Below are positions 7,629-36,580 of a DNA stretch of 39,727 nucleotides, in pieces. The stretch lies in the IMG/VR virus record IMGVR_UViG_2778261268_000004; one strand, given 5' to 3'. Made by a program: the position numbers and the translations under genes. Under the pieces are notes generated by a model. It ran no database searches. It saw nothing but the letters and a program-made list of their open reading frames with translations, and was not told where the DNA came from. The DNA is from a virus (Duplodnaviria; Heunggongvirae; Uroviricota; Caudoviricetes). Within the stretch, counting starts at the first letter, position 1, and each line of letters begins with the position of its first letter.

Positions 7629-7734
7629 CATATCTATTCGCACCTCAAAGGTAATAAAAAACCAAATGTGGTTGATCTTTTTTTTGTGTCAGCACAAAAT
7701 GACCGTAATCCCAATACTAATAACAGGGCTTACC

Positions 7735-7935
7735 ATGGAAATCATTACACGTATTGATGCCGCAAAGCGCGGACTTAAACGCTATTACACCGGAAAACAA
7801 TGTAAGCACGGACATGACAGTGAACGCTGGGTTTACAACGGACACTGTGTTGAGTGCACCATGGAATCAAACCGTCGCATCAGGGCAGAGATTAAGCAGA
7901 TCATGATTAATTCCTCCCCACAACACTCAAGCTGA
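7735..7935 (+). CDS. Hypothetical small zinc-finger-like protein (start uncertain)
   Basis: CKHGH...CVEC pattern; track start ATG 7666 is part of the ATGTGGTT motif and lacks an RBS, so an internal ATG is preferred. Confidence 0.4.
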   Translation: MEIITRIDAAKRGLKRYYTGKQCKHGHDSERWVYNGHCVECTMESNRRIRAEIKQIMINSSPQHSS

Positions 7936-7950
7936 TAGCGGAGATTAATC

Positions 7951-8766
7951 ATGAGCAGACATGCAACAGATTGGGCCTGGGAGACAGATCCAGGCAGCTC
8001 ATCATTAAAGCTCATACTGCTCTCGATGGCTGACAGAGCCGATGAATATAACCTCTGCTACCCCAGCATAGAACGCCTAGTTAAAGACACTTGCCTGAAT
8101 AAAAAAACCGTGCAGGCCGGACTTATATCGCTCATGAAAATGGGGCTTATTTCAGATACCGGAGAGAGAAAGGGAGCGACGAAAAGAGTGCGGGTTTTCT
8201 CTCTTAATATAACCAAAAACGGGAACATTAAAGGCAACCGGGAAGGGGGTAATGAACCCAAAAACGGTAATGTTACCGAAAACGGGAATATACCCAAAAA
8301 CGGGATGTTGAATGATCCCAAAAACGGGATGTTGAATGATCCCAAAAACGGGATCCAGAACCAGTCATATAACCAGTCATTTAACCAAGAGAGGGAGAGC
8401 AGGACAAAAACCGGGGATTCTGTGCCTCATGACCCCGGCGCAAACAACGCTGTGATGAATAACTTTGTTCCTCCAGGTGGGCCAGGGCAATTAGGCAAAT
8501 TTGTCATGCATGAACAATGGCAGCCATCAGATGACTTTCTTCGGAAAAGCTCATTGCAGGGGATCTACCTGGACAGTCTGCCAACGGCACAGGAACTTGC
8601 AGAGTTCAGAATTTACTGGATGGCTGAGGGTAAGGCATACCATCAGGCACAGTGGGAGCAGAAGCTGGCAAGGCGGCTGCAGATTAGCAGACAGAAGCAA
8701 TCAACATTACCTGATAACAACGTTCCGCACTGGAACAGCCCTGAAGCGTGGGAGGATTTCTTGTGA
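7951..8766 (+). CDS. Replication initiator (O-like; N-terminal HTH, DnaT-like C-terminus) containing iterons
   Basis: N-terminal DWAWETDPGSSSLKLILLSMADRADEYNLCYPSIERL HTH pattern; internal direct repeats; followed by a P-like gene. Confidence 0.75.
   Translation: MSRHATDWAWETDPGSSSLKLILLSMADRADEYNLCYPSIERLVKDTCLNKKTVQAGLISLMKMGLISDTGERKGATKRVRVFSLNITKNGNIKGNREGGNEPKNGNVTENGNIPKNGMLNDPKNGMLNDPKNGIQNQSYNQSFNQERESRTKTGDSVPHDPGANNAVMNNFVPPGGPGQLGKFVMHEQWQPSDDFLRKSSLQGIYLDSLPTAQELAEFRIYWMAEGKAYHQAQWEQKLARRLQISRQKQSTLPDNNVPHWNSPEAWEDFL
8213..8382 (+). repeat. Iteron-like direct repeats inside the replication-initiator gene (candidate origin)
   Basis: CCAAAAACGG(G/T)A at 8213, 8258, 8294, 8318, 8342 including two exact 24-bp tandem units (8293-8316, 8317-8340); AACCAGTCAT x2 at 8361-8382. 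Confidence 0.6.
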
Positions 8767-9548
8767 ACAACGTTTTTACCGCGATACAAAACCGTGACGG
8801 AGAAGCCCTTTCTCGCATGTCAGGTTATGAGCATCAGTACGTCAACAATGACAATGTGGTGAACATGTCAGCAGAGAGGCTTGTTGATGCCCTTTTCAAA
8901 CAGCTGAAACAACTGTTTCCGGCGGCAGTGGTAACCAACCTGAAGACGCCAGAGCAGGAAGTTGCTGCAAAACAGCAGTGGATTGCTGCGTTTGCCGAAG
9001 GGGGGATCCGAACCCGTGAACAGGTTTCTGCTGGTATGCGCCACGCCCGCGCCAGTGAATCTCCGTTCTGGCCGTCGCCAGGGCAATTTATCAAGTGGTG
9101 CAAAGACAGCAAGATGGTTCTTGGCGTCACCATTGACGATGTGATGGCGGAGTTTCACCGGTACAGCAAGGAAAAAAGTTTATATCCTGGTGGTCCCGAA
9201 AGATTCCCGTGGCGGCATCCGGTTATGTACTGGGTCGTATGTGATACCCGCCGTGCAATGTATCAGCGCCAGCTTAGCGAGATTGAGGTTGAGAAACACG
9301 CGCGCCGGCTGCTCGATGATTGGGCGAAAAAGGTGGCTTCCGGACAGCAGATACCCGATCCGGTGATCAGCATACAGGCAAAGTCAGAGCCCATGAGTAC
9401 ACCTCCGGACACAGGGAGAGACGTTTACCATCCACCGGGGCGAAGTTTCGGGTGCATGCCTAACGCCGCCACCCTTGGGGGAATAACACCGGCGCAGTGG
9501 CTGATGGAGGAATACAGGCGGGGAAAGGCGGCAGGATTTATCAAGTAA
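8763..9548 (+). CDS. Replication protein P-like (helicase loader)
   Basis: QQWIAAFAEGGIRTREQVSAGMRHARASESPFWPSPGQFIKWC resembles lambda P; GTG start with GGAGG RBS overlapping the upstream stop. Confidence 0.7.
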   Translation: MNNVFTAIQNRDGEALSRMSGYEHQYVNNDNVVNMSAERLVDALFKQLKQLFPAAVVTNLKTPEQEVAAKQQWIAAFAEGGIRTREQVSAGMRHARASESPFWPSPGQFIKWCKDSKMVLGVTIDDVMAEFHRYSKEKSLYPGGPERFPWRHPVMYWVVCDTRRAMYQRQLSEIEVEKHARRLLDDWAKKVASGQQIPDPVISIQAKSEPMSTPPDTGRDVYHPPGRSFGCMPNAATLGGITPAQWLMEEYRRGKAAGFIK

Positions 9549-9585
9549 TACCAGCGCGATAGCGCATTTTTTTACGCCTCAACAA

Positions 9586-9600
9586 TTACCTATGAGGTAA
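9586..9600. promoter_or_regulatory. Operator-like palindrome TTACC-tatga-GGTAA
   Basis: Upstream of DUF1064-like gene. Confidence 0.5.
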
Positions 9601-9620
9601 CAAAATATTCTAAACTCTAT

Positions 9621-9662
9621 TGATTTCGTGTCTTATGTGGTTTTTAATTACCTTAGAGGTAA
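9621..9662 (+). promoter_or_regulatory. Candidate promoter (TTGATT-17 bp-TTTAAT) with ATGTGGTT in the spacer, overlapping operator TTACC-ttaga-GGTAA (9648-9662)
   Basis: -35/-10-like hexamers at 17-bp spacing; operator overlaps the -10/+1 region; ATG at 9666. Confidence 0.5.
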
Positions 9663-9665
9663 ATC

Positions 9666-10010
9666 ATGAGAAAACAGATACAGGCTCTTGGTCGACTCAA
9701 AACAGGCCAGATGAACAAAACAGAATCTGCGTATTGCCAGCACCTTGAGCTGCGTAAACGTGCAGGGGAAATCGCCTGGTATCGATTCGAGGGTATCAAG
9801 CTGCGGTTAGCTGACAACACGTTCTATACGCCAGATTTCGCTGTGATGCTCGCCACCGGAGAGATGGAACTGCACGAAGTGAAAGGTTTCTGGACCGACG
9901 ACGCCAGGGTGAAAACCAAAGTCGCCGCAGATCAGTATCCGTTCCGAATCATCGGGGTAACGGTTAAGCCAAAGAAAGCAGGTGGTGGCTGGAACATCGA
10001 AGAGTTCTGA
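9666..10010 (+). CDS. DUF1064-like protein (putative PD-(D/E)XK nuclease)
   Basis: YTPDFAV...ELHEVKG nuclease-like motif; promoter plus two operators upstream. Confidence 0.6.
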   Translation: MRKQIQALGRLKTGQMNKTESAYCQHLELRKRAGEIAWYRFEGIKLRLADNTFYTPDFAVMLATGEMELHEVKGFWTDDARVKTKVAADQYPFRIIGVTVKPKKAGGGWNIEEF

Positions 10011-10071
10011 ATCGACGATCTTTTTAGTTATCAATGTAATCAATAAGTTATGTGGATAAGCGAGGGTAAAG

Positions 10072-10533
10072 ATGGAAAGTAATATCAAAGGGTTAGTTGC
10101 CGCCGGGCATGAGATGGCTTCGGAACTGAAAGCAGAATGTGGTGCCGTTGATATGCGTAGTGTGGCAAAGCTGATCAGCGATTTGGCAACGCAACTGGAA
10201 GTGCAACTGGTGCGTGCTAATGCGCTGGCGGCGGAGAATGCAAAGCTGAAGAAGTTCTGCAAAGACGCTGCATTCGATGCCGATTACGAAGCAGAGCTAG
10301 GTATGGAGCGTGGTGGATTCAGTGATGCGCTTAACGAAATCAAAACCCCAGCCACCGATGCTTTTCTGGCTGAAGTACGGGCGCAGGGGGTGGAGATGTA
10401 CGCAGATAACCTCGACAACGGAGCAGACGACGCAGAACGAGGTGGTTTTGATTATGCCGTTAAGTTTCTACGCAGTGAAGCGTCTAGTGTACGTTTGTTC
10501 TCCGACCAGCTTCGCAAAGGAGGCAACCAGTGA
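10072..10533 (+). CDS. Ea22-like protein
   Basis: N-terminal ...ELKAECGAVDMRSVAKLI pattern typical of lambdoid Ea22-like proteins. Confidence 0.5.
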   Translation: MESNIKGLVAAGHEMASELKAECGAVDMRSVAKLISDLATQLEVQLVRANALAAENAKLKKFCKDAAFDADYEAELGMERGGFSDALNEIKTPATDAFLAEVRAQGVEMYADNLDNGADDAERGGFDYAVKFLRSEASSVRLFSDQLRKGGNQ

Positions 10534-10784
10534 GTAATTCAGCACGACTACAGCTTGGTTTTTCACCGCTATCAAAAACTATCATGCTGGCAAAAATGCG
10601 CGATGTTGAAGGTGGACGTATGCGCGTTGGCAATGATCCAGGTCGTGATGTTACCAATGAGGCTGCTCAATTGGTGTGGCGACTGGTCATGGCTGAAGGT
10701 GGTGAGATCGCGTGGGAGCTGGATGATGGTTCTCGCATGGTGTTGAAGGCAGAAAAACAGGAGGCAACCAGTGAGCAAGATTGA
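10530..10784 (+). CDS. Hypothetical phage protein
   Basis: Coupled ORF in nin-like block. Confidence 0.4.
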   Translation: MSNSARLQLGFSPLSKTIMLAKMRDVEGGRMRVGNDPGRDVTNEAAQLVWRLVMAEGGEIAWELDDGSRMVLKAEKQEATSEQD

Positions 10785-11301
10785 CTATCAGGTACTGCGT
10801 GAGGCAGCAGTAGCAATTGAAACAGTAGCAACGCCTCAAAAATTGCTGGCATTTCGTATGAAAGTCACACCTCAGGTTGTGCTGGCTCTACTGGATGAAC
10901 TGGAAGCCAAAGACAAAGCATGGTCCGCACAGGACAACCATATCAACCAGCAGGCTTACCGAATTGAATCGCTGGAAAAGAAGAATGGCGAGCTGGGAAG
11001 ATCGCTGGAAGCCGCAGAGAAGCGCATAGCAGAACTGGAAGCCGAACCTGTAAGCCAAACTTGCAAGTTGAACGAGCCATCGGGCAACTCTCCGGTAACT
11101 CCGGGTGGTTGGATAAGCTGTAGTGATCGAATGCCGAAAGGGTATGCTGATGTGTTAGTGACCGACGGCGAGCATGTCGAGGTTAAATGGTGGGATGAAT
11201 CTGGGTATTGGAATAGTTGGACGGAACTTAGCTCAGATATCCTTGCCCATGAAATAACTCACTGGATGCCGCTACCGGAGCCGCCGCAGGAGGCAAAATG
11301 A
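10771..11301 (+). CDS. DUF551-like protein with coiled-coil N-terminus
   Basis: C-terminal ...THWMPLPEPP signature. Confidence 0.55.
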   Translation: MSKIDYQVLREAAVAIETVATPQKLLAFRMKVTPQVVLALLDELEAKDKAWSAQDNHINQQAYRIESLEKKNGELGRSLEAAEKRIAELEAEPVSQTCKLNEPSGNSPVTPGGWISCSDRMPKGYADVLVTDGEHVEVKWWDESGYWNSWTELSSDILAHEITHWMPLPEPPQEAK

Positions 11302-11651
11302 TGGACTATTCACAGTTAAGTGATTTTGAAATTAACAGAATGGTAGGAGACATAATTTTTAAAGGCCTTTGGGCGTGTAAACCGGAAACATCAGGGAATA
11401 ACACCAACAAATGGTATTACGGAAATACTGATACAACTTTTGAGCCATTAAACCCTTTACCTGACTACTGCAATAATCCATCGGATGCATGGCCTATTAT
11501 TGTTGATAATAAAATCAGTCTAACCTGCCACCAATCTCGCGGTGAGTGGTCAGCTGTTTTTAATGCCGAGAACATTTGCTTTCATGCGAATAATCCACTC
11601 CGAGCCGCCATGATTGTATTTCTCATGATGCAGGAAAATCAGAATGGCTAA
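11298..11651 (+). CDS. NinX/DUF2591-like protein
   Basis: MDYSQLSDFEIN N-terminus typical of NinX-like proteins. Confidence 0.5.
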   Translation: MMDYSQLSDFEINRMVGDIIFKGLWACKPETSGNNTNKWYYGNTDTTFEPLNPLPDYCNNPSDAWPIIVDNKISLTCHQSRGEWSAVFNAENICFHANNPLRAAMIVFLMMQENQNG

Positions 11652-11982
11652 ATCAGCAGCAGAGCGCAAAGCCGCTCAGAGAGCCAGACAAGCTGCATCT
11701 GGTGTGCGTAAGCTGGAAATTGTGCTTGATGCTCAGGAAATTGAAATGCTGGAGCGTAACTGTGCCGCGCGTCGCCCAGGGCGTGCGCCTTACGAATTTG
11801 GTGAGTATATAGCGTTACTGATCCGCCAGGATGATGCACGCGTGCGCGGGCGTATAAAATCGATCAGTAGAAAACGTTGCGGTAAGTGCGGCGAGAGAGT
11901 TCCAGTTAATTCATGTCCGTGTAATGGTGACTCACAATGCTGGGTGACTAAAGGCTGGCATGAAACGAAATTAATAGTGTGA
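11644..11982 (+). CDS. Hypothetical protein with C-terminal zinc ribbon (possible regulator)
   Basis: CGKCG...CPC cysteine cluster; last gene before the terminase; stop lies inside a GTGACATGTCAC palindrome. Confidence 0.5.
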   Translation: MAKSAAERKAAQRARQAASGVRKLEIVLDAQEIEMLERNCAARRPGRAPYEFGEYIALLIRQDDARVRGRIKSISRKRCGKCGERVPVNSCPCNGDSQCWVTKGWHETKLIV

Positions 11983-11990
11983 CATGTCAC
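11979..11990. repeat. Perfect 12-bp palindrome GTGACATGTCAC (copy 1)
   Basis: Exact string; overlaps stop codon of the 11644-11982 gene; terminator 40 bp downstream. Confidence 0.9.
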
Positions 11991-12031
11991 GAGTAGATTA
12001 TGCATGATGAATTTGACGGGTTTTGAATACT

Positions 12032-12058
12032 GCCGCCAACTATGGCGGCTTTATTTTG
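12032..12058 (+). terminator. Rho-independent terminator before the terminase genes
   Basis: GCCGCC-aacta-tGGCGGC followed by TTTATTTT. Confidence 0.65.
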
Positions 12059-12068
12059 CATGGTACTA

Positions 12069-12101
12069 TTACCACAACGGTAACTATTACCACGGTGGTT
12101 A
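12069..12101. promoter_or_regulatory. Tandem operator-like sites TTACC-acaac-GGTAA and TTACC-acggt-GGTTA upstream of terminase small subunit
   Basis: Direct repeat CTATTACCAC x2 forming one perfect and one imperfect palindrome. Confidence 0.45.
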
Positions 12102-12103
12102 TG

Positions 12104-12697
12104 ATGTCTGCTGAACCTAAAACCTATAAACGCAAATCAACGCAATTTAAGCCACTAACAGCAATGCAGGAGGCTTATTGCCAGTCATACATCAAAACGC
12201 CTGAAAACCAGACTCAGGCAGCGATTAACGCAGGATTCTCCCCAAATACAGCGGCAGTTAAAGCCAGTGTCATGATGCGCGATGAACGCATTCAAAAACG
12301 GATTGCCGAGTTGATGGAGGAGCGCAACAAACGAATGCGCGTCAGTGCTGATTACGTTCTCATGCGCCTGGTGGAGATCGACCAGATGGACGTGATCGAC
12401 ATCCTCAACGACGATGGGAGCCTTAAACCAATCCGTGAGTGGCCGAAAATCTGGCGCACTACGCTTAGTGGCTTTGATCTGTCATCGACCATCATGAACA
12501 TGAACGAGGATTCGATAGAGACAATCCTCAAAAAAATTAAATGGCCTGACAAGGTGAAGAACCTTGAGCTGATTGGTAAGCATGTTGATGTCAACGCGTT
12601 CAAAGAACGTCTGGATGTTAATGTGAATGTGACAATTGCTGATCGCATAGCAGCAGCCAGGAAGAGACTGAAAGAACGTCAGGATGGCAATCAGTGA
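12104..12697 (+). CDS. Terminase small subunit
   Basis: SPNTAAVKASVMMRDERIQKRIAELMEE pattern; ATG 12104 after GGTGG RBS; overlaps large subunit. Confidence 0.7.
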   Translation: MSAEPKTYKRKSTQFKPLTAMQEAYCQSYIKTPENQTQAAINAGFSPNTAAVKASVMMRDERIQKRIAELMEERNKRMRVSADYVLMRLVEIDQMDVIDILNDDGSLKPIREWPKIWRTTLSGFDLSSTIMNMNEDSIETILKKIKWPDKVKNLELIGKHVDVNAFKERLDVNVNVTIADRIAAARKRLKERQDGNQ

Positions 12698-14169
12698 CAG
12701 ATACAGCGTTATCTCCTGAAGAGCAGTTAATCGAGGATATTGCAGGGTTCACTCACGATCCGCTTGGCTATGCCCTCTATGCGTTCCCGTGGGGGGAAGA
12801 GGGTACTGAACTGGCACATGCCACCGGTCCACGTCAGTGGCAGGCCGATGCGTTCCGAGAGATACGTGATCACCTGCAGAATCCAGAGACGCGCTATCAG
12901 CCGCTTATGCTGGCACGCGCTTCTGGTCACGGTATTGGTAAATCCGCATTCATCTCAATGCTGATCAACTGGGGCATGTCCACTTGCGAGGATTGTAAGG
13001 TCGTGGTGACCGCCAACACCGACAACCAGCTACGAACGAAGACCTGGCCGGAAATTATCAAGTGGTCGAACCTTGCTATCACGAAAGAGTGGTTTACCTG
13101 TACCGCTACCGCGATGTACAGCAATGACCCTGGGCACGACAAGCGGTGGCGAGCTGACGCAATCCCCTGGTCTGAGCACAACACTGAGGCATTCGCCGGA
13201 CTACACAACGAGCGAAAACGCATCATCGTGGTATTCGATGAAGCGTCGAACATTGCGGATCTGGTGTGGGAAGTTGCTGAGGGTGCGCTTACGGACGAAG
13301 ACACTGAGATTATCTGGGTGGCGTTCGGAAACCCTACACGTAACACCGGACGTTTCCGCGAATGTTTCCGCAAATATAAACACCGCTGGAAAACTGCGCA
13401 GATTGACAGCCGAACGGTGGAAGGCACTAACAAACAGCAGTTGCAGAAATGGGTTGATGACTACGGGGAAGACAGCGACTTCGTTAAAATCCGTGTGCGC
13501 GGCATATTCCCTGATGCATCTGAATTGCAGTTTATCCCTACCGGTCTTACTGATGAGGCAATGAAACGGGTGGTAACCGCTGCGCAGGTGGCGCATGCTC
13601 CGGTGATAATCGGTGTTGACCCGGCATATTCAGGCGTTGATGACGCGGTGATATACCTGCGGCAGGGGCTACACAGTAAGGTGCTGTGGACTGGCAACAA
13701 GACTACCGACGATCTGATTATGGCGAAGCGTATCGCTGACTTTGAAGACCAGTATCAGGCTGACGCGGTGTTCATCGACTTCGGTTACGGAACCGGTCTG
13801 AAGTCAATCGGTGACGGATGGGGTCGTACATGGCAACTTGTTCCGTTCGGTGGCGCGTCTACTGACCCGCAGATGCTCAACAAGCGTGGGGAGATGTTCA
13901 ATTCATGCAAGACATGGCTGAGGCTGGGCGGCATGCTGGATGACCAGGAAACAGCAGACGACCTGTCGGCGGCAGAGTACAAAGTTCGAGTGGATGGTAA
14001 AATCGTTATCGAACCGAAGGAAGATATCAAGGAGCGGCTTGGGCGTTCGCCGGGTAAAGGCGATGCGCTACTGCTGACGTTTGCGTTCCCTGTGTCTAAG
14101 CGTCTGCGAATTCCCGGGCAGCAGAACCAGCAAGGCAAGGCCATCACAGATTACGATCCCTATGCTTAA
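12694..14169 (+). CDS. Terminase large subunit
   Basis: Walker A-like GHGIGKS, ATPase and nuclease regions (VFDEASN, GVDPA); 491 aa. Confidence 0.9.
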   Translation: MTDTALSPEEQLIEDIAGFTHDPLGYALYAFPWGEEGTELAHATGPRQWQADAFREIRDHLQNPETRYQPLMLARASGHGIGKSAFISMLINWGMSTCEDCKVVVTANTDNQLRTKTWPEIIKWSNLAITKEWFTCTATAMYSNDPGHDKRWRADAIPWSEHNTEAFAGLHNERKRIIVVFDEASNIADLVWEVAEGALTDEDTEIIWVAFGNPTRNTGRFRECFRKYKHRWKTAQIDSRTVEGTNKQQLQKWVDDYGEDSDFVKIRVRGIFPDASELQFIPTGLTDEAMKRVVTAAQVAHAPVIIGVDPAYSGVDDAVIYLRQGLHSKVLWTGNKTTDDLIMAKRIADFEDQYQADAVFIDFGYGTGLKSIGDGWGRTWQLVPFGGASTDPQMLNKRGEMFNSCKTWLRLGGMLDDQETADDLSAAEYKVRVDGKIVIEPKEDIKERLGRSPGKGDALLLTFAFPVSKRLRIPGQQNQQGKAITDYDPYA

Positions 14170-14199
14170 TCCGCTGGTTGGGATAATGTCGTTGATATC

Positions 14200-14243
14200 C
14201 TCTGATGAGGATAAAACAAAGCCAGCTCATCGGCTGGCTGTTT
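14200..14243 (-). terminator. Terminator hairpin after gp49-like gene
   Basis: GCCAGC-tcatcg-GCTGGC with T-rich run on the minus strand. Confidence 0.5.
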
Positions 14244-14830: not shown

Positions 14831-14907
14831 TGGCGTGGCATGCAGGATTCGAACCTGCGACCAACCGCTTAGAAGGCGGTTGCTCTGTCCAACTGAGCTA
14901 ATGCCAC
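14831..14907 (-). tRNA. tRNA-Arg (anticodon UCU)
   Basis: Cloverleaf folds by hand: acceptor GTGGCAT/ATGCCAC, D-stem GCTC/GAGC, anticodon stem ACCGC/GCGGT with loop CTTCTAA, T-arm GCAGG-TTCGAAT-CCTGC, discriminator G, encoded CCA. Confidence 0.85.
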
Positions 14908-15229
14908 AACGCTGAGAGCACTTAGCCTGTTAAGGCGCCACACTTTGTCGCGGCTCCATAAATGCTCTCATCGTTGTACCCTCGTCTCTTCCGAGGCGTC
15001 ACACCGAATCGCCGGGATGGTGAATCCCCGTGCGCGGAATAAAACCGCTCGACTTGCACATTCCGGCTACCTGGTTCGTTTGCCCGAGCAAGGGAGGGTG
15101 CCCCTTAAACGTATCCAGACCGCTATCGGCGCATGTGCCATACGCCGTACTGCTCAAAATAAAAGCTCACTCCACCTGTTCAATTTAACGACAAGCCAGT
15201 CAGGTTAATAACCGGAATGAACTCTTTGG

Positions 15230-15244
15230 TTACCTGAAAGGTAA
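15230..15244. promoter_or_regulatory. Operator-like palindrome TTACC-tgaaa-GGTAA upstream of the virion module
   Basis: Perfect half-sites; ATGTGGTT at 15289-15296 and GGTAAT at 15302-15307 nearby. Confidence 0.5.
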
Positions 15245-15334
15245 TAATTCGTGCGTTAAATGTCAACTATCTACGATAAATAAATCATATGTGGTTAAAT
15301 TGGTAATAATTTAATTGCGTACGGAGTCATTGAT

Positions 15335-28820: not shown

Positions 28821-31295
28821 ATGAGACAGGAATGTATACAAGCGGTCCAGCAGGTGGCGCAGCGCGCGTTAACGGCGCGAGAAATACAGAACATTGAAGA
28901 CCGCATTTATCGAAATATGCGCTCCATTGCTCGTGATGACCCGATGTCGTGGCGACAACTTTCCGAATCAGAACGGTTGTATCGTGCAGCACAATTGGCA
29001 TCTGAAGAATTACAGCGAGAAGCGGCATTAAAGAAACGTCGTGTGGCCCTCGCTATAGCCGCACGTCAGAGATTGGATAAATTTATCAATAGCTATCAAG
29101 GGGCTGATGGGAAACTTGGCGCTCTTAACCGTACTATTGCTTTTAATGCAGACGGTAAATCGAATTTCCTCTCTGTTGAATCCAGAACAAAAGCCACTCG
29201 TGATTATGCATTGAGTCAATTGCAGGAGGCATTTGAAGCAGTTGATCCTCGCTTTTTTGGCCTGTTTGAAGATGAAGCGGGCGTGCGTGACCTGGTATAT
29301 GAAATGCGAGGGCAAAATACTGGCAATGCTAAAGCAAGAAAAGGTGCTAAGGCGTGGAGAGAAGTGACAGATCTACTTCGCCGCCGGTTTAATGATGCTG
29401 GTGGGGACATTGGCTATCTCGAAAACTGGGGGATCCCTCAACATCATTCTATGGAAAAGGTTGGGGCGGTATCAAAGGATAAGTGGGTTAGCGATGTTAT
29501 AGGTAAGCTGGATCGCAAATATTATACCCGAGCCGATGGACAACTGATGAACGATGCCGAGTTGTCTGCATTTCTTGGAGAGGCTTATAACACGATCGCT
29601 ACTGGTGGGCTGAATAAGCTTACTGATACCGGAATGCGAATTTCCGGCGCACGTGCTAACCGTGGTAATGCATCACGACAGATACATTTCAAAGATGCAG
29701 ATTCCTATCTCCAATATCAACAACTTTATGGCGATCGCTCTCTATGGGAAATCATGGTCGGTCACCTGGAAGGTATCAGTAAAGATATTGCTCTGGTGGA
29801 AACATATGGTCCAAACCCCGATCATGTTTTCCGCTCTCTTCTTGATCAGGTGAAGGCAGAAACGGCAACAGCTAACCCGAGTAAAACCGGTAAAGTCGAG
29901 CGGCTGGCGAACAACACAGAGAATCTGTACAACTTTATTTCCGGAAAGACACAGCCTGTAGCGAATCCGCACATCGCGCGATGGTCTGACAATATCCGCA
30001 ACTGGCTGGTTGCCAGCAGACTCGGTTCCGCGTTGCTGTCATCGTTCTCTGATCTTGGGACCATGTATCTGTCTGCGAAGGTGACCAACCTTCCAATGAA
30101 CCAGTTATTCCGCAACCAGCTTGAAGCTATGGACCCAACGAACCGTACAGAACTTGCGCGGGCGCGCCGCGCTGGTCTGGCGATGGAATCTCTACTTGGC
30201 AGCGTTAACCGCTGGGCGATGGATAATATGGGGCCGTCAGTGTCTCGTTGGGCGGCAACGGCGGTAATGCGTGCCAGTGGGCTTACAGCATGGTCAGATG
30301 CGCACAAGCGCGCCTATGGCGTAACCATGATGGGAAGCCTGGGAGAAGTAGTGTCACGGACACCAGACCTTCGTAGCCTCGATGATTCTGATTTTCGCAT
30401 CCTGAAAAGCAAAGGGATTACTGACACAGACTGGAGCGTATGGAAGCTGGCGCAACAGGAGGACTGGGGGAACGGCAATAATACGATGCTGACACCGGAA
30501 AGCATTATGCGTATCCCTGATTCAGCAGTTAAACATCTTGGTGAGCCTGAACGCGTGAAATTTGAGGCAATGCGTAAACTGCTCGGTGCCGTAACTGAAG
30601 AAGTTGATATGGCTGTTATTACACCTGGAGCACGTGAGCAGCTGATAACCGGTTCTGGTATTCAGCGTGGAACATGGAAAGGTGAATTAACGAGAAGTGT
30701 TTTCCTGTTTAAATCGTTCCCTATCTCGGTTGTTATGCGTCACTGGTCACGCGCTATGGGTATGCCGTCTGCTGGTGGTCGTGCGGCATATATTGCGACG
30801 TTTATTGTCAGTACGACCATTCTTGGCGCTTTGTCGCAGCAACTTAACGACCTTGCGTCTGGTCGTAATCCTCGAGAGATGACAGGAGAAGATGCCGCAA
30901 AATTCTGGCTTGGTGCTCTACTGAAAGGTGGTGGTCTTGGCCTTTACGGTGACTTTTTATTGTCAGATCACACTAGGTACGGAAGCGGCGCGCTGGCGTC
31001 GATGCTTGGCCCGGTAGCTGGTCTGGTTGATGACGTAGTGAAGATTGCTCAGGGCATACCGTTAAATGCTGTGGAAGGGAAGAGTGAGCAGACTGGTGGT
31101 GATCTGGTGAAGCTGGGGAAAGGTTTGATGCCAGGTGCGAATCTCTGGTACTTAAAGGCGGCTCTCGATCATATGATCTTTAACCAGATGCAGGAGTATT
31201 TTTCACCAGGCTATTTGCGTAAAATGGAGCAACGTTCGAAGAAAGAGTTTAATCAGACATACTGGTGGCGACCTCAGGATGTCACTCCGCAATAA
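28821..31295 (+). CDS. Internal virion / ejection protein, gp16-like
   Basis: 824 aa, last large gene of the core block. Confidence 0.6.
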   Translation: MRQECIQAVQQVAQRALTAREIQNIEDRIYRNMRSIARDDPMSWRQLSESERLYRAAQLASEELQREAALKKRRVALAIAARQRLDKFINSYQGADGKLGALNRTIAFNADGKSNFLSVESRTKATRDYALSQLQEAFEAVDPRFFGLFEDEAGVRDLVYEMRGQNTGNAKARKGAKAWREVTDLLRRRFNDAGGDIGYLENWGIPQHHSMEKVGAVSKDKWVSDVIGKLDRKYYTRADGQLMNDAELSAFLGEAYNTIATGGLNKLTDTGMRISGARANRGNASRQIHFKDADSYLQYQQLYGDRSLWEIMVGHLEGISKDIALVETYGPNPDHVFRSLLDQVKAETATANPSKTGKVERLANNTENLYNFISGKTQPVANPHIARWSDNIRNWLVASRLGSALLSSFSDLGTMYLSAKVTNLPMNQLFRNQLEAMDPTNRTELARARRAGLAMESLLGSVNRWAMDNMGPSVSRWAATAVMRASGLTAWSDAHKRAYGVTMMGSLGEVVSRTPDLRSLDDSDFRILKSKGITDTDWSVWKLAQQEDWGNGNNTMLTPESIMRIPDSAVKHLGEPERVKFEAMRKLLGAVTEEVDMAVITPGAREQLITGSGIQRGTWKGELTRSVFLFKSFPISVVMRHWSRAMGMPSAGGRAAYIATFIVSTTILGALSQQLNDLASGRNPREMTGEDAAKFWLGALLKGGGLGLYGDFLLSDHTRYGSGALASMLGPVAGLVDDVVKIAQGIPLNAVEGKSEQTGGDLVKLGKGLMPGANLWYLKAALDHMIFNQMQEYFSPGYLRKMEQRSKKEFNQTYWWRPQDVTPQ

Positions 31296-31304
31296 GGATG
31301 AGAA

Positions 31305-31406
31305 ATGATTGCTTTTATTCTTGTTGTGTTTGCGCTTGTTGCACTTGGCGTTATGAACCGTAATGTATCATTGACGATGGCGAATTTGCTGTTGCAGTTA
31401 TTTTGA
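31305..31406 (+). CDS. Small hydrophobic peptide (33 aa)
   Basis: AAGGATGAG RBS; MIAFILVVFALVALGV hydrophobic N-terminus; not in ORF track (<60 aa). Confidence 0.3.
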   Translation: MIAFILVVFALVALGVMNRNVSLTMANLLLQLF

Positions 31407-31451
31407 TATTATCTGGTGTAGCAGGGTACATAGGCTTGTCATAACGTGAGC

Positions 31452-31463
31452 GTGACATGTCAC
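31452..31463. repeat. Perfect 12-bp palindrome GTGACATGTCAC (copy 3)
   Basis: Exact string; immediately upstream of terminator hairpin 31464-31482. Confidence 0.9.
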
Positions 31464-31488
31464 AGGCCGCTTTCGCGGCCTTGTTTTT
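31464..31488 (+). terminator. Rho-independent terminator ending the internal-virion-protein operon
   Basis: AGGCCGC-tttc-GCGGCCT followed by TGTTTTT. Confidence 0.75.
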
Positions 31489-31648
31489 AACGAATACCAC
31501 CGCCGCCAGGGCGGGAATCCGCAGAACGCCCACCGCAGCGGGAGCCGTCAGCGGCAGTATCGCTGTCGTGCTGACAACGACCGGCAAAGGCCTGAGTTGA
31601 AGCTACCAGAGACAACAAAACGAACAGTGCAGCAAATGCTTTTTTCAT
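31487..31648 (-). CDS. Small secreted peptide (signal peptide plus about 31-aa Gly/Arg-rich mature part with 2 Cys)
   Basis: MKKAFAALFVLLSLVASTQAFA signal-like N-terminus; weak RBS. Confidence 0.35.
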   Translation of the reverse strand: MKKAFAALFVLLSLVASTQAFAGRCQHDSDTAADGSRCGGRSADSRPGGGGIR

Positions 31649-31720
31649 TGTGAAATTTCCATCTATAAGCCACCTCAATGTGGCGTCAATGAGTGTAGCA
31701 CTGACTTTTGTTTCGTCCAC

Positions 31721-31746
31721 AAAAAAGCCCGCGCTGCGGGCTTCTA
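31721..31746 (-). terminator. Rho-independent terminator after the unknown 210-aa gene
   Basis: GAAGCCCGC-agc-GCGGGCTTC followed by TTTTTT on the minus strand. Confidence 0.75.
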
Positions 31747-32379
31747 TTAATGCAGTTTATCTTTGCTTATAACCAGTAGTCTGTGGGTATGCACATCTTT
31801 ATCACTGCCCCAACAGAAATCAGCCCACTGGCTATAGAAATCATCCCATGATGTCATGAAGCTAAGAGGTCTATCTTCTTCAGAGCCATCTGAAACGTAT
31901 ACATTATATCCCGGGGTGTTTATAGCCCAAGAAATCATTCTTTCCCAGAATCTTCTCCCATCGATTGTTTGTTGCTCATCAGATACAACAATCGCATATT
32001 GCTCTAGGAAGAACTGAAAAAAAATCTGAGGCAAACCATGAACAGCACGGTCATGAATAACATTAGGCGTACGCCATACCATGATCTGCGTACATGTTCT
32101 TTTGGCTTCGACGATATCTTCCCGAAAGATTAACTTAACCGCATACACCGTTTCTGGAGTATCGCTGGTAGTAATCATTCTGTAATGATCGCCATTACAA
32201 GATTTTACAAGGCGATAACCATAAGGTGTTGTGAATCCCGGAAGAACGAAATCAACCACACCTTTCGCTAAGTAGCTTTCGGTGTGACTAGTGTTCTTCT
32301 CAGACATGTTCAGTTTTCTATCGAAATCTGCTTCTGGGATAATGTATGGCATCGCTTTTCTTGTTGTATTTGTTCTCAT
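31747..32379 (-). CDS. Unknown 210-aa accessory protein (moron)
   Basis: Strong GGGAGGA RBS 5 nt from ATG; own terminator (31721-31746); TTACC-N5-GGTAA operator upstream; no recognisable motif. Confidence 0.6.
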   Translation of the reverse strand: MRTNTTRKAMPYIIPEADFDRKLNMSEKNTSHTESYLAKGVVDFVLPGFTTPYGYRLVKSCNGDHYRMITTSDTPETVYAVKLIFREDIVEAKRTCTQIMVWRTPNVIHDRAVHGLPQIFFQFFLEQYAIVVSDEQQTIDGRRFWERMISWAINTPGYNVYVSDGSEEDRPLSFMTSWDDFYSQWADFCWGSDKDVHTHRLLVISKDKLH

Positions 32380-32438
32380 TTCGTCCTCCCATGTTTGGCT
32401 ACAGGACGCGTTTTGAAGGGAAGATTAAAAATGCTTTC

Positions 32439-32453
32439 TTACCCTTGAGGTAA
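32439..32453. promoter_or_regulatory. Operator-like palindrome TTACC-cttga-GGTAA upstream of the unknown 210-aa gene
   Basis: Perfect half-sites about 60 bp upstream of ATG 32379 (minus strand). Confidence 0.5.
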
Positions 32454-32525
32454 TAGTACGCTATTCACCCCCAGTCTGCAATCTGTACAGAATTATTTAA
32501 AGGCACATCCCTGTGCCGCCGCCCG

Positions 32526-33236
32526 TCAGAAGAACCCTGCCTTGTCGTTGATGTACTCCGCGTGCGTCTGGATATCACGCAGGCATTTGCTCACACCGAC
32601 GATGTAGCAGAACATGGTGGTCAGTTCCGCCGCCGCGCCCGATACGTCGTGCCCGTCTTCCTGTAACTGGTTTAGCAGATTCATCAGCAGTGAGCTCTCC
32701 GTCAGGCCGAGAACACCAGACGGCGAATGAATCAGGCTACGGTAGCCTGGCTTCAGTGGGGCACTGTAGGTTTTGTTCTCTATCTTCATTGCCTGCATCA
32801 CTGCTGATGCTGTGGCGTTGGCTACCTGGTCGGCAACCATCTTTATGCGTTCTTCCTGCGGGAGCGAGTTTTTAATGTAACTTCCGGTGCGGCGGATCTG
32901 AGGAAGAACCTCACCTGTAACCCATTTACGAAAGCGGTAGGGGATAGTGCCTGGTGTCACCGCATCGCGGCAGCGGAGGATCAGTGTGTAGAGGCCTGAC
33001 TCGGAGATGATGTTGATCTCTTTTACTCGGCTATCAAAAATTGCACGATGTTCATGCCCTATGTTGAACATAGACCTTTCATCATCATCCAGTTTTTCAA
33101 GTGATTGGGTGACGTTTTGGATACGCAGCGCACTACAAACGTCTTGGGCTACAAACCATGGTTGGCCATCGATAATGATGGAACGGATAGGGTTAACAGA
33201 TTCAAATTTGAAGATGGCAGTTTGAGCATTAGCCAT
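32526..33236 (-). CDS. Bro-N domain antirepressor-like protein
   Basis: N-terminal FKFESVNPIRSIIIDGQPWFVAQDVCSAL...ESGLYTLILR Bro-N pattern; GGAGAT RBS. Confidence 0.75.
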   Translation of the reverse strand: MANAQTAIFKFESVNPIRSIIIDGQPWFVAQDVCSALRIQNVTQSLEKLDDDERSMFNIGHEHRAIFDSRVKEINIISESGLYTLILRCRDAVTPGTIPYRFRKWVTGEVLPQIRRTGSYIKNSLPQEERIKMVADQVANATASAVMQAMKIENKTYSAPLKPGYRSLIHSPSGVLGLTESSLLMNLLNQLQEDGHDVSGAAAELTTMFCYIVGVSKCLRDIQTHAEYINDKAGFF

Positions 33237-33253
33237 GGTGGTTATCTCCACTT

Positions 33254-33268
33254 AGTGATTTTAATCAC
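33254..33268. promoter_or_regulatory. Palindrome GTGATT-TTA-ATCAC immediately upstream of the Bro-N gene RBS
   Basis: Inverted repeat located -15 to -35 from ATG 33236 on the minus strand. Confidence 0.35.
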
Positions 33269-33391
33269 CACCGCAACGCCAATTACTGGTGGTGAACTGG
33301 ACAAGGTTGGCGTACCGGCCTAAGTGGTACCGGCGTCCTTTCGGACCCCTGCCCAGCCCACCATAATTCGGATATGGCTGTGCTTAACGCA

Positions 33392-33414
33392 TAAAAAAAC
33401 CACGTCTGGCGTGG
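33392..33414 (-). terminator. Rho-independent terminator inside the antirepressor intergenic region
   Basis: CCACG-ccaga-CGTGG followed by TTTTTTT on the minus strand. Confidence 0.65.
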
Positions 33415-33505
33415 TATGCGCCACTTAGTAACTCGGGACGCCAATCCCGGCACTGGATTTTGCCAGTGCCCGATTACTATGGCACAAGAGGAGTGCGATG
33501 TAAAT

Positions 33506-33520
33506 TTACCGCAAAGGTAA
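33506..33520. promoter_or_regulatory. Operator-like palindrome TTACC-gcaaa-GGTAA
   Basis: Perfect half-sites in the antirepressor intergenic region. Confidence 0.45.
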
Positions 33521-33551
33521 ATATAAGCACTCATCTTGGTAATTTCAAATC

Positions 33552-33809
33552 TTATCTGGTTTGTTTTCGTAATTGTTCGGCACAATAGTCGAGATGTGTT
33601 TGCAGATCCCGCATAGACATCTGTGAGCTGGTGACGTAGTTAATCAGTGCAGTCAGTTCGGCAAGTGGGCCATCGACATTAAATCCATCCTTATCGAGAT
33701 CCCGGAGTAATTTCATCAAGTGCGATCCCTCCACCAGTGATCTGACGCCTCCCGGCGTGTGAATCCTTTCGGTAAATCCGTCTTCCAGTGGATAGTGATA
33801 CTGCTGCAT
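33552..33809 (-). CDS. Small protein paralogous to the C-terminal domain of the Bro-N protein
   Basis: RSLVEGSHLMKLLRDLDKDGFNVDGPLAELTALINYVTSSQMSMRDLQTHLDYC aligns with the C-terminus of the 32526-33236 product; GGAGAAG RBS. Confidence 0.55.
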   Translation of the reverse strand: MQQYHYPLEDGFTERIHTPGGVRSLVEGSHLMKLLRDLDKDGFNVDGPLAELTALINYVTSSQMSMRDLQTHLDYCAEQLRKQTR

Positions 33810-33885
33810 CTTATCTTCTCCATGCAATAACTGTATATTTATACAGTATCAAATAATTTGTTTGCTATCCAGCACGTTTTGTAAA

Positions 33886-33900
33886 TTACCCGAAAGGTAA
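33886..33900. promoter_or_regulatory. Operator-like palindrome TTACC-cgaaa-GGTAA
   Basis: Perfect half-sites in the divergent region between the antirepressor-like gene and the tailspike; ATGTGGTT at 33933-33940 and GGTAAT at 33946-33951. Confidence 0.5.
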
Positions 33901-34004
33901 TATCTATTCGTATTTACAGTCTTTCTATCCATATGTGGTTTTTCAGGTAATAGAATAACCAGATATGCGGCGCAACGGGTGCTGCGACTATCTGGAGATT
34001 TAAC

Positions 34005-36296
34005 ATGACGGTCTCAACCGAAGTTGACCACAACGAATACACAGGCAATGGCGTTACGACATCGTTTCCGTATACCTTCCGCATTTTCAAAAAATCCGAC
34101 CTGGTTGTTCAGGTGGTTGACCTTGATGAAAATATCGCTGTGCTGGCTCTTGATACTGATTACACTGTCACTGGGGCTGGTGGATACAACGGTGGCAATG
34201 TAATTTTGTCGAAGGCATTGGCCAGCGGTCATCATATTTCTATATCTCGAGAGCTACCAGTTACGCAGGAAACCGATCTGCGCAATCAAGGTAAGTTCTT
34301 TGCTGAAGTGCATGAGGATGCTTTTGATAAGCTCACTATGCTTATACAGCGGGCATATAGCGTTTTTCGCTTAGCTCTGCGTAAACCATCAAGCATTGCG
34401 AACTGGTACGACGCGCTGAACAACTGCATCCGCAATTTGCGCGATCCCTGCAACCCGCAGGATGCCGCCACCAAAAATTATGTCGATACGCTCGCAAACA
34501 GCAACTTAATCCGCACGCTGCGAGTTCCAGAAGTTATTATATCCTTGCCTGATGCTGAAACCAGAGCTAATAAGATGGTTGCATTTGATAGTATCGGCAA
34601 TCCTTTAGTGGTTTTGCCTCCTTCAGGTTCTGCTTCTGATGTTCTTATTCAGTTGGCTGCCTCAGATGGAGCAAAATTATCGTTAAGTCAAGTAGCCACC
34701 GCATATGGCCTTGATTTCTCGTTAGGCGGTGTATGGCGGGAGGGGGCGTTATCTAATGTTGATAACTGGTGGTGGTATAATAATAAAATCTACACTGGTG
34801 GTAGTGGCACTCTTCCGTCATCTCCTGCTTTGCCATGGTACGAAGTGACGGTAGCAGATTATATTTCTGTTGCTCAATTTTTCCCCATTACTGGTGATCC
34901 AGCGGCAGATAACTCAGCTAGCTTTAATGCTGCTGCAGCAGTTGCTTTATCGGCAGGAAAGAGGCTGTTTGTCCCTGCAGGAACTTACTATGTTAAGTCA
35001 CCAGTTGATTTAACAATAGGCACTGTTGACCTATTCGGGGATGGCGTTGAGAAGTCATTCATTATTGCGGGGAGTGGGTTCACTGGAGAGGCAGTTGTCA
35101 ACATGTACTACGAAACTGACTCTATAAGACGTAGCACATCTATCTATCACGTTACAGTTGATGGGAACAACATCGCCAACTATCCTTGCCGAATTCAATA
35201 TGTTCACCTAGGAAGAACCCATAATTGTCGTTTCATCAATGGCGCGGTGGCGAACTTATATACTATAAACGACTGGCTTAATACCTATGATTGCTGTTCT
35301 TTTGTTCCTGCGCCAAATCGCGGAGTTCACCTTGCTGGGGCTAACAACCGCGTAACGTTCAATAACTGTGGATTTGCATCAAATAAGGTCGGTGAATATG
35401 CCTTTTATGCTTCTGGTACTTCCCCTATTGAAGGTTTAAGCTTAATTGGATGTGACCTTGAGTTCGGCATTGGGCATGGCATGTACTTAAATACCCGAGT
35501 GACCAATATTGTTGGCGGGTACTATGGCGAAGCGATACAAGGCGATATTTTTACGGTTCCAGATGGAGTAGTAAAAATAAGCGGTGTAAATGCTTTTGTA
35601 GGATATTACAATGAGGGAGGAAGGTTTGTTGTTCTTGACAATGATGCTGTAGTTAAGGTTGATAGTTGCTGGATTGCAGATCAGGGCAACTTTAAACTTT
35701 CATTACTTGCATCAAGCGCTAACAACATGGCTCATGCTGTATTTACTAAATGTTATATTGGTGCAACTGTGTCTGGCCCACAAGTTATGGAAGGAGATTG
35801 TTTAGGCAAGATCAATATGAGGACGTTTGCAGAAAGCAGGGCAATCCTTTATACAATGAACAATACTGGTAATACAGTAACCAGAAGCAGATACAACTCA
35901 ATAGGAGCAAAAATAACCATTAATACCGTAACGAGCCCTAGTTCTAACAAGCTATCACTTAATACTAAGATAAAAGACAGAGGGTGGAAGGTTAACGACC
36001 GGGTGTACTTAATTGTTACTTATGAGAGTAATGTTGATATAAATATTTATTTAAGCAGTTCGATATATGCTGCATCGGATGCAACGCTATTTGGAACTTT
36101 ACCATCAACAAATGGTTCTTTATCTACGTGTTATATTGCTAATAATATTATTCCGGAAAATACATCTGAGATATTCGAGTTTTATGTAAATGGCGCTGGT
36201 GTTGGCGATTACTTTGCTATTCAGGATGTTACTCTTACAGACAGGTCATTCACTTTCAGTGGAACAACTATGACCACTTTTGCTAAGGCTGAATAA
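34005..36296 (+). CDS. Tail fibre/tailspike: T7 gp17-like N-terminal anchor plus beta-helix-like C-terminal domain (probable depolymerase)
   Basis: N-terminal pattern ending NKNYVDTL as in T7-type fibres; C-terminal repetitive Asn/Gly-rich region suggestive of a right-handed beta-helix. Confidence 0.85.
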   Translation: MTVSTEVDHNEYTGNGVTTSFPYTFRIFKKSDLVVQVVDLDENIAVLALDTDYTVTGAGGYNGGNVILSKALASGHHISISRELPVTQETDLRNQGKFFAEVHEDAFDKLTMLIQRAYSVFRLALRKPSSIANWYDALNNCIRNLRDPCNPQDAATKNYVDTLANSNLIRTLRVPEVIISLPDAETRANKMVAFDSIGNPLVVLPPSGSASDVLIQLAASDGAKLSLSQVATAYGLDFSLGGVWREGALSNVDNWWWYNNKIYTGGSGTLPSSPALPWYEVTVADYISVAQFFPITGDPAADNSASFNAAAAVALSAGKRLFVPAGTYYVKSPVDLTIGTVDLFGDGVEKSFIIAGSGFTGEAVVNMYYETDSIRRSTSIYHVTVDGNNIANYPCRIQYVHLGRTHNCRFINGAVANLYTINDWLNTYDCCSFVPAPNRGVHLAGANNRVTFNNCGFASNKVGEYAFYASGTSPIEGLSLIGCDLEFGIGHGMYLNTRVTNIVGGYYGEAIQGDIFTVPDGVVKISGVNAFVGYYNEGGRFVVLDNDAVVKVDSCWIADQGNFKLSLLASSANNMAHAVFTKCYIGATVSGPQVMEGDCLGKINMRTFAESRAILYTMNNTGNTVTRSRYNSIGAKITINTVTSPSSNKLSLNTKIKDRGWKVNDRVYLIVTYESNVDINIYLSSSIYAASDATLFGTLPSTNGSLSTCYIANNIIPENTSEIFEFYVNGAGVGDYFAIQDVTLTDRSFTFSGTTMTTFAKAE

Positions 36297-36302
36297 TTAA
36301 CA

Positions 36303-36328
36303 GAAAAGGTGGATCACTCCACCTTTTC
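36303..36328. terminator. Bidirectional terminator after the tailspike
   Basis: AAAAGGTGGA-tcac-TCCACCTTTT, A-run and T-run on both sides. Confidence 0.75.
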
Positions 36329-36475
36329 ATCAAGCCAGTCCGCCCACCACTGCATCATTTCTCTGCGCTTATCGAGATACTGAGCATGGTTGTAAATCCC
36401 GCGCATAGATCCTCCGTTAGCATGTGTCAGTTGCACCGCATTGACATCCTCCACGCCCTGAAGTACTGGGTTTTA
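36314..36475 (-). pseudogene. 3'-terminal remnant of a second P4-type integrase gene
   Basis: Open frame PVLQGVEDVNAVQLTHANGGSMRGIYNHAQYLDKRREMMQWWADWLDEKVE aligns with the C-terminus of the intact integrase (KALAHEQKGVRAVYNKAEYARQRAYMLQQWADMID) but is divergent; no upstream gene body. Confidence 0.6.
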
Positions 36476-36530
36476 CGGCGCACTGGATAAATTTACGATC
36501 TCATCCGTAAAATACAAAAAAACCACTTTA

Positions 36531-36580
36531 TTACCTTTATGGTGATTTATGTAAGGTGTTTTATTTAACCATATATGGTT
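36531..36580. promoter_or_regulatory. Operator-like imperfect palindrome TTACC-tttat-GGTGA plus palindrome AACCATATATGGTT upstream of the lysis cassette
   Basis: Same half-site variant as 7303-7317; AACCATATATGGTT at 36567-36580. Confidence 0.4.

Follow-up and report, generated by a model that had tools for sequence, protein, structure and literature searches.

A conserved 14-bp inverted repeat heads operons in the window, a 39,727-nucleotide stretch of viral DNA (Caudoviricetes; IMG/VR record IMGVR_UViG_2778261268_000004) that megablast places in the genus Uetakevirus with epsilon15, phiV10, TL-2011b, and SPC32H. This dyad (consensus AWCCATATATGGTT, or A-W-C-C-A-T-A-T-A-T-G-G-T-T) is conserved at orthologous promoters of related phages and prophages, at least 15 of them, which come from nine or more genera, and it occurs together with a module of two regulatory genes, one encoding the prophage repressor Rep and the other a Cro-like protein of 76 aa. 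Judged by sequence, the dyad may well be the operator of a second phage-encoded dimeric helix–turn–helix regulator, likely this Cro-like protein. The E. coli members of the genus are 88–98% identical to the window by megablast, separate pieces being covered by separate records, and the gene order of the window is that of phiV10 and epsilon15 in the prophage permutation.

An earlier note on this DNA had described a recurrent promoter or regulatory module in which the 8-mer ATGTGGTT is paired with GGTAAT at five intergenic sites. The 8-mer has exactly four copies (7666, 9635, 15289, and 33933), all on the plus strand, and the variant AACCATATATGGTT is present at 36567–36580 as described (sites 1–5; Table 1). 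The module stands in so far as its element heads operons and is kept at orthologous places, but its unit is the 14-bp dyad, of which ATGTGGTT is the right, better-conserved half, and GGTAAT is a separate element. GGTAAT does lie near the first four sites, at gaps of 10, 4, 5, and 5 bp, but at the fifth it is 31 bp away (ATTACC at 36530–36535 to 36567). By count, the 8-mer is insignificant, with four copies against 1.6 expected and four or more copies in 9 of 100 and 26 of 300 shuffles. Its placement is significant: all four copies fall within the non-coding 7.4% of the window, which would happen with a probability of about 3e-5 if they were placed randomly. The extended pattern C[AT][AT]AT[GA]NGGTT has 6 matches, all non-coding, against 0.6 expected, and none of 300 shuffles reaches 6.

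The symmetry of the site is seen in its base frequencies. Among 41 instances of the dyad, C4, T8, G11, and T14 are invariant, and A1 is present in 39/41, G12 in 38/41, and A7 in 35/41. The frequencies are complementary at positions 1/14, 3/12, 4/11, 5/10, 6/9, and 7/8, and variable positions pair too, for instance A or G at position 5 with T or C at position 10. A symmetric weight matrix built solely from relatives and run over 39,714 window positions ranked 36567, 33927, 15283, and 7660 first, with scores of 18.0–22.4, and the next best score was 12.6, in coding sequence. The dyad of site 2 (9629) scores 4.4 and ranks 30th because its right half alone is present; the 9621–9662 region, put forward earlier as the model site, thus holds the weakest copy, one that is absent from a Cronobacter prophage. 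As single strands, the dyad sites fold at 0 to −3.4 kcal/mol, no better than shuffles, and no Rfam family overlaps them; a hairpin or structured RNA element was rejected on both grounds.

Orthologous intergenic regions were aligned for phiV10, epsilon15, Klebsiella phage Kp4865-1, and Enterobacter phages BUCT554 and Tyrion, and at all five places the dyad is a conserved block amid diverged flanks. It is also kept in SPC32H and the Cronobacter prophage, and in species-representative genomes from Citrobacter, Erwinia, Kluyvera, Pseudescherichia, Buttiauxella, Pseudocitrobacter, and Scandinavium. The four strong copies (7660, 15283, 33927, and 36567) are present in every genome examined, and the copies at site 2 and at the leftward promoter PL are missing in some. 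Site 1 is kept as GGTAAT-N4-A[AT][CT]C[AG]WWT[AG]YGGTTGATC in 15 genomes, and site 4 is conserved in epsilon15, Kp4865-1, BUCT554, Tyrion, SPC32H, and Cronobacter. At site 3, 6 genomes share a nearly invariant block of about 30 nt; among 80 IMG/VR loci found via the portal protein, which are nearly identical and yield only within-species variation at this site, the block is identical in 63, differs by a single base in 12, and is unmatched by the search pattern in 5. Site 2 of Tyrion carries the flipped AACCGTATATGGAT in place of the window's TGTCTTATGTGGTT, with the good half on the other side. Tyrion and BUCT554 have a strong PL dyad and epsilon15, Kp4865-1, and Cronobacter have none; the good half of the PL dyad faces away from the −10. 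A symmetric site that tolerates inversion reads like the site of a dimeric DNA-binding protein, unlike a promoter hexamer.

At every promoter the dyad contacts the −35/spacer zone, at a distance from the −10 that is not fixed. Its centre lies about 7.5 bp from the candidate −10 at PL and site 2, 14.5–17.5 bp at sites 3–5, and 28.5 bp at site 1. At PL, at sites 1, 2, and 5, and at the weak copy at 33548, the dyad lies over spacers or −35 hexamers of consensus type. PL (TTGACA-17-AATCAT) and site 2 (TTGATT-17-TTTAAT) are good sigma-70 promoters by consensus, in the order −35, 3 nt, 14-mer, −10, with a Rep operator that begins with the last two −10 bases and a second operator 62 bp upstream, centre to centre. 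At site 2, the motif is indeed enclosed by TTGATT and TTTAAT (9643–9648) with a 17-nt spacer, although TTGATT lies at 9620–9625, one base off the position first given. The last two dyad bases of site 1 are the first two of a −35-like TTGATC (7672–7677), and 17 nt on there is a conserved −10-like CAAAAT (7695–7700) that runs into an operator-like TACC. Site 5 overlaps the −35-like TTAACC (36565–36570) of a promoter-like TTAACC-17-TATGAT. No good −35 was found by consensus scan at sites 3 and 4. In site 3, GGTAAT (15302–15307) lies 5 nt past the dyad within GGTAATAATTTAAT, the conserved stretch being GGTAATAATTT; in site 4, the conserved GGTAATAGAAT, which contains GGTAAT, also lies 5 nt past the dyad, and TAGAAT (33951–33956) is the likely −10. 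Strong copies sit at promoters with weak core elements or a missing −35.

Both extra weak copies (6501–6514 and 33548–33561) are on leftward promoters. The one at 33548 is stronger in relatives (13.2 in phiV10 and 17.7 in Tyrion) and has the layout of site 1, with a Rep-like operator over the −10; its promoter-like site reads into the isrK and C4 RNAs and the gene for a Bro-N antirepressor. The dyad centre is at about −41 at 7660 and 33548, which is the class II activator position. A helical phasing that would place the centres (−19.5, −29.5, and −40.5) on one helix face was discarded, as it relied on TATTAT instead of the better-conserved TATGAT at site 5.

The candidate binder is encoded beside rep. 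The Cro-like protein is homologous to phiV10p41, epsilon15 gp39, and SPC32H_042, matches phrog_35 ("transcriptional repressor"), and aligns weakly with the helix–turn–helix of the Rep N-terminal domain (27% identity over 41 residues). AlphaFold2 predicts a five-helix XRE fold (pLDDT 86), for which the nearest folds are YdaS of CP-933P, the DNA-binding domains of the 434 and P22 repressors, and restriction–modification C-proteins, at TM 0.5–0.66 and with weak Foldseek E-values. The best structural match, at TM 0.64–0.66, is YdaS, an experimentally supported Cro analogue that binds operators, as footprinted (PMC8630535). A sequence search of solved structures gave no match for the Cro-like protein or for the 112-aa regulator discussed below. 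In all genomes that have the dyad, the stretch AGTTSHYIQTHLTG hardly varies; the helix–turn–helix, with the recognition helix TSHYIQTH, is nearly invariant across the genus, as is the dyad, and the family is confined to Uetakevirus-type prophages (48 clusters at ≥61% identity; 37 phage records). As for a Cro/CI-type operator, the site has dyad symmetry over 14–18 bp and a small helix–turn–helix gene stands beside the repressor gene. The Cro-like protein is thus the most likely binder of the dyad, and we infer that it may well bind there.

The Cro-like protein would be the first product of the rightward early promoter after Rep removal. At PL and the 9620 promoter, where the site fills the spacer, bound protein would block RNA polymerase. 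Conversely, at the replication, virion, tail-spike, and lysis promoters, where the site touches or replaces the −35, bound protein may help RNA polymerase. The strong copies stand at the poorest core promoters, which suggests a pattern more typical of activator-dependent promoters. A dual role, with early promoters turned off and delayed ones turned on, is favoured, although the direction of control is proposed with low confidence. It seems doubtful that the Cro-like protein goes further and acts as master timer of the Uetakeviruses, with one dyad whose placement decides between early shut-off and delayed switch-on. If it did, it would take the part that Q-type antitermination plays in lambdoid phages, with every operon still directly under Rep.

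Several points weigh against assigning the dyad to the Cro-like protein. All the evidence is consistent, yet no part of it decides the matter: neither the Cro-like family nor the dyad occurs outside one genus, and since everything in the genus co-occurs, co-occurrence cannot single out this protein from Rep or other genes of the genus. A classical Cro should own a good site at the rep/PR switch, and there is only a weak candidate there (7214–7227, score 7.9). All −10 and −35 assignments are consensus matches only. Moreover, the variable distance from dyad to −10 is more in keeping with a repressor than with an activator, which leaves activation the speculative half of the scheme.

The other half of the module is the Rep operator. 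GGTAAT is a half-site of a 17-bp dyad, ATTACC-N5-GGTAAT, found with at most one mismatch at 6480, 6542, 7254, 9585, 9647, 12068, 12086, 15229, 32438, 33885, and 36530. The same 17-bp dyads are annotated as "protein_bind: repressor (lysogeny)" in the epsilon15 GenBank record (NC_004775), and the window Rep is homologous to the crystallised SPC32H Rep (PDB 5d50, E 4e-42); thus, GGTAAT is already known as part of the repressor operator. The N-terminal recognition helix of Rep, NLVNRW, is invariant across genera. The operator pairs at PL (6480–6558) and at the 9620 promoter (9585–9663) have centres exactly 62 bp apart each, and at site 1 the distance is 60 bp; these spacings suggest a small loop held by one Rep tetramer. 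A LexA box (CTGTATATTTATACAG, 33831–33846) lies directly upstream of ant, in the arrangement described for SPC32H.

Rather than belonging to a second regulator, the dyad could be an auxiliary, non-canonical Rep site, held by the second DNA-binding pair of the tetramer so that a small loop closes at promoters with one operator. We consider this unlikely, although SPC32H Rep, of which the window protein is a homologue, reportedly binds DNA as a tetramer in which the DNA-binding domains form two pairs (PMC9638917). The half-sites of operator and dyad share ACC/GGT, an operator lies beside every dyad, with a gap of exactly 4 bp at sites 1 and 2 and PL, and the four strong dyads are at promoters with one full operator, whereas PL and site 2, each with two operators 62 bp apart, have weak dyads. 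However, the dyad has the form AWCC-N6-GGWT with a conserved centre (A7/T8), whereas the operator, to which the GGTAAT partner conforms, has the form TTACC-N5-GGTAA with a free N5. The CC-to-GG spacing is therefore 6 nt and not 5, and the outer operator bases ATT/AAT are lost in the dyad. In addition, PL of Tyrion combines two full operators with a strong dyad, the operator–dyad distance varies at site 5 through indels, and the recognition helix of the C-terminal helix–turn–helix of Rep differs among genomes that have the same dyad.

It is improbable, too, that another activator reads the dyad and switches on the delayed operons, be it the 112-aa regulator encoded at 11644–11982, another small phage protein, or an enterobacterial host factor. 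The strong copies at promoters with a poor or missing −35 would fit such an activator. The 112-aa regulator (epsilon15 gp49/phrog_536) has a ribbon–helix–helix-like N-terminus, a Cys-rich C-terminus, and a position that is usual for late activators. Yet its homologue in the unrelated Pectobacterium myophage ZF40, gp22, is 68% identical, and the ZF40 genome holds no dyad scoring above 12.7 and none that is intergenic, so that this regulator was rejected as the binder. A perfect dyad of another sequence, GTGACATGTCAC, lies at 11980–11993, directly past the stop codon of the regulator gene, and the same dyad (TGTGACATGTCACA) follows the ZF40 homologue; it may be the regulator's own site. Neither ZF40 nor Sodalis phage phiSG1 has a dyad scoring 15 or more or any Rep operators, and both are devoid of the Rep/Cro-like module; ZF40 has its own lambda-type cI/cro module, and phiSG1 has no match to p41. 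As a mosaic test, phiSG1, with an epsilon15-type portal and no Rep/Cro-like module, operators, or dyad, is consistent with the proposed link but weak, because the element is degenerate.

A host factor would be in keeping with hosts that are all Enterobacterales, but none with the dyad consensus is known to us from E. coli or Salmonella. IHF, CRP, LexA, DnaA, PhoP, FadR/GntR-type, and MqsA consensuses were set aside, as they misfit the invariant positions. The closest of them is that of MqsA (ACCT-N2-4-AGGT), with a different spacing. The dyad does not fit the LexA box CTGT-N8-ACAG, nor, by eye, the IHF consensus WATCAANNNNTTR or the DnaA box TTATNCACA; site 3 alone matches the DnaA box at 8/9 positions, at bases that vary between genomes. 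The annotated IHF sites of epsilon15 lie away from the dyads.

There is little to recommend the view that the motif is part of the core promoter, an unusual −35 or spacer read by RNA polymerase and inherited through paralogous promoter modules. The modules are clearly paralogous duplicates: the block ATATCTATT(C/G) recurs at site 1, site 4, and PL (7631–7640, 33901–33910, and 6524–6534); the 10-mer TATCTATTCG, which had been noticed at the first two of these positions and is indeed there, is part of this block. At PL, the block continues into the −35 hexamer (ATATCTATTGACA, minus strand), and TATTGA is common to PL and site 2; the block is absent from epsilon15 and Kp4865-1. Parts of the dyad also coincide with −35-like TTGATC (site 1), TTAACC (site 5), and, in relatives, TTCATA (site 4). 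However, the dyad shifts by about 20 bp in relation to the −10, and without the fixed 16–18 nt of a −35 hexamer it is not itself a core promoter element. Its orientation flips between genomes, at site 2 of Tyrion and at PL, the invariant C4, T8, G11, and T14 are symmetric and not −35-like, and conservation of spacer sequence across genera is not normal for a core promoter. That a short AT-rich word recurs by chance because the intergenic DNA is itself AT-rich, as the count of ATGTGGTT alone would allow, is hardly credible and is refuted by the comparative data, with every copy in non-coding DNA, the dyad at orthologous places in 15 genomes, and four sites ranked first by the relatives' matrix.

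Table 1. Dyads, Rep operators, and genes of the window in order of position (score, relatives' weight matrix).
Feature	Position	Strand	Score	Context
Integrase gene	1–1257			
Leftward early operon	up to ~6460			
Rep operator pair	6480–6496 and 6542–6558	.		flanks PL
Weak dyad at PL, AACCAGATACGCAT	6501–6514	−	9.1	in spacer of TTGACA (6523–6518)-17-AATCAT (6500–6495)
rep, prophage repressor	6615–7199	−		two helix–turn–helix domains; Pfam and PHROG matches
Weak dyad candidate	7214–7227		7.9	rep leader (rep/PR switch)
Cro-like 76-aa gene	7354–7584	+		first gene of rightward early transcript; divergent from rep
Terminator	7606–7625			after Cro-like gene
Partial Rep operator cgcACC-N5-GGTAAT	7639–7655	.		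ends 4 bp before site 1; GGTAAT of the earlier note's first site
Dyad, site 1, AACCAAATGTGGTT	7660–7673	+	18.0	upstream of replication operon
Replication operon	from 7735			
Rep operator ATTACCTATGAGGTAAC	9585–9601	.		upstream partner at site 2
Dyad, site 2, TGTCTTATGTGGTT	9629–9642	+	4.4	right half alone good; upstream of DUF1064 operon
Rep operator ATTACCTTAGAGGTAAA	9647–9663	.		overlaps −10 and +1 of site 2 promoter; starts 4 bp past dyad
Second early (DUF1064) operon	from 9666			last gene, 112-aa "transcriptional regulator" (11644–11982)
terS and terL	after 112-aa regulator gene			
Rep operator GTTACCTGAAAGGTAAT	15229–15245	.		upstream of site 3
Dyad, site 3, AATCATATGTGGTT	15283–15296	+	18.6	upstream of virion operon
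Virion operon	from 15335			gp3-like gene, portal
Weak dyad AACCAGATAAGATT	33548–33561	−	11.2	adjoins −35 TTGAAA of 10/12 promoter-like site
ant	33552–33827	−		
Rep operator ATTACCCGAAAGGTAAT	33885–33901	.		perfect copy; between divergent ant and tail-spike promoters
Dyad, site 4, ATCCATATGTGGTT	33927–33940	+	20.5	upstream of tail-spike gene
Tail-spike gene	start 34005			
Rep operator ATTACCTTTATGGTGAT	36530–36546	.		upstream of site 5
Dyad, site 5, AACCATATATGGTT	36567–36580	.	22.4	perfect palindrome; upstream of lysis cassette
Lysis cassette	start 36642			

The gene layout calls for one correction of annotation. As had been suspected, the gene does not start at the ATG of the motif (7666): the open reading frame at 7666–7935 is an artefact of that ATG, and the true start is at 7735. 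The stretch from 7735 is identical to phiV10p42 in 201/201 nt, and the PHROG profile match begins at residue 13 of the 7699 reading. Six iteron-like repeats (8205–8354; core CCCAAAAACGGGA, 18–45 bp spacing) within the DnaT-like replication gene are probably the origin of replication. A terminator at 12032–12049 is followed by back-to-back Rep operators (12068–12084 and 12086–12102), the second of which stops 1 bp short of the likely terS start (12104); a consensus scan showed no promoter ahead of terS at 12032–12104, and with a phiV10-style terS start at 12023 the terminator would fall within the gene. A tRNA-Arg (anticodon UCU) lies on the minus strand at 14831–14907, between the terminase and virion operons. 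Also on the minus strand, between ant and the Bro-N antirepressor gene (32526–33251), Rfam identifies a C4 antisense RNA (33285–33368) and an isrK Hfq-binding RNA (33393–33469); together with Bro-N they look like a second, P1-type RNA-controlled antirepressor module, and the 100-aa "ORF" (open reading frame) at 33283–33585 is probably not a gene. At about 36330–36445, on the minus strand, a remnant codes for the end of a tyrosine integrase, its last ~38 residues, with 39% identity to the C-terminus of the window integrase, and occupies the place of the O-antigen modification genes of relatives.

Uetakeviruses such as epsilon15, phiV10, and SPC32H serve as reporter and typing phages, and a repressor/antirepressor switch has its structural model in them. 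So far, the circuit includes only Rep, Ant, and LexA; the proposed second operator, conserved at the head of nearly every operon, and the uncharacterised Cro-like gene point to a part not yet placed. The 14-bp dyad is unannotated in the epsilon15, phiV10, and SPC32H records, in which the Cro-like gene is a "hypothetical protein", and a full-text literature search with the dyad sequence, with the main papers on the genus outside its reach, returned unrelated primers only and no mention of the site. In the ZX5 paper, promoters were assigned by software prediction only. The element, though unannotated, is of an ordinary kind, and it does not challenge the established view of phage regulation. The dyads offer defined sites for mutation and are readily testable in the SPC32H system.

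The closest likeness is to the Cro/CI operators of lambdoid phages (434, P22, and lambda) and to the YdaS/PaaR2 system of CP-933P. In these systems, a dyad of 14–18 bp overlaps promoters, as the window dyad would by consensus, and here as there the first gene, which diverges from that of the repressor, encodes a small XRE helix–turn–helix protein; the fold predicted for the candidate is like those of YdaS and of the 434 repressor and P22 c2 DNA-binding domains. Their Cro and repressor, however, share operators at one or two switch regions, whereas the window dyad is distinct from the Rep operator, occurs at six or seven promoters around the genome, and is weak at rep/PR. The Rep/Ant/LexA switch of SPC32H and the "repressor" sites of epsilon15 belong to the same genus and have a Rep homologue, matching 17-bp sites, and a LexA box upstream of ant, but their annotations cover the 17-bp operator only and not the 14-bp dyad.

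Activator boxes that replace the −35 are known from other phages, such as the T4 MotA box at −30, the P1 Lpa inverted repeat near −22, and the lambda CII repeats at −35. Like sites 3 and 4, these boxes stand just upstream of a recognisable −10 at a delayed promoter without a good −35, but their distance to the −10 is fixed, whereas it varies in the window, and no homologues of MotA, AsiA, Lpa, or CII were found among the scanned window proteins. The restriction–modification C proteins (C.AhdI and C.PvuII), which are among the fold matches of the candidate, are dimeric XRE proteins of 70–80 aa that bind palindromes at the −35/spacer, and one such protein activates or represses depending on the position of the site. 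Unlike the single dyads spread over many promoters of the window, C-boxes are two adjacent palindromes at the single promoter of their own operon, and they share no sequence similarity with the dyad. In its symmetry, its length, its apparent overlap with promoter-like sequences, and the candidate gene adjacent to it, the dyad appears most like a Cro-type or C-protein-type operator.

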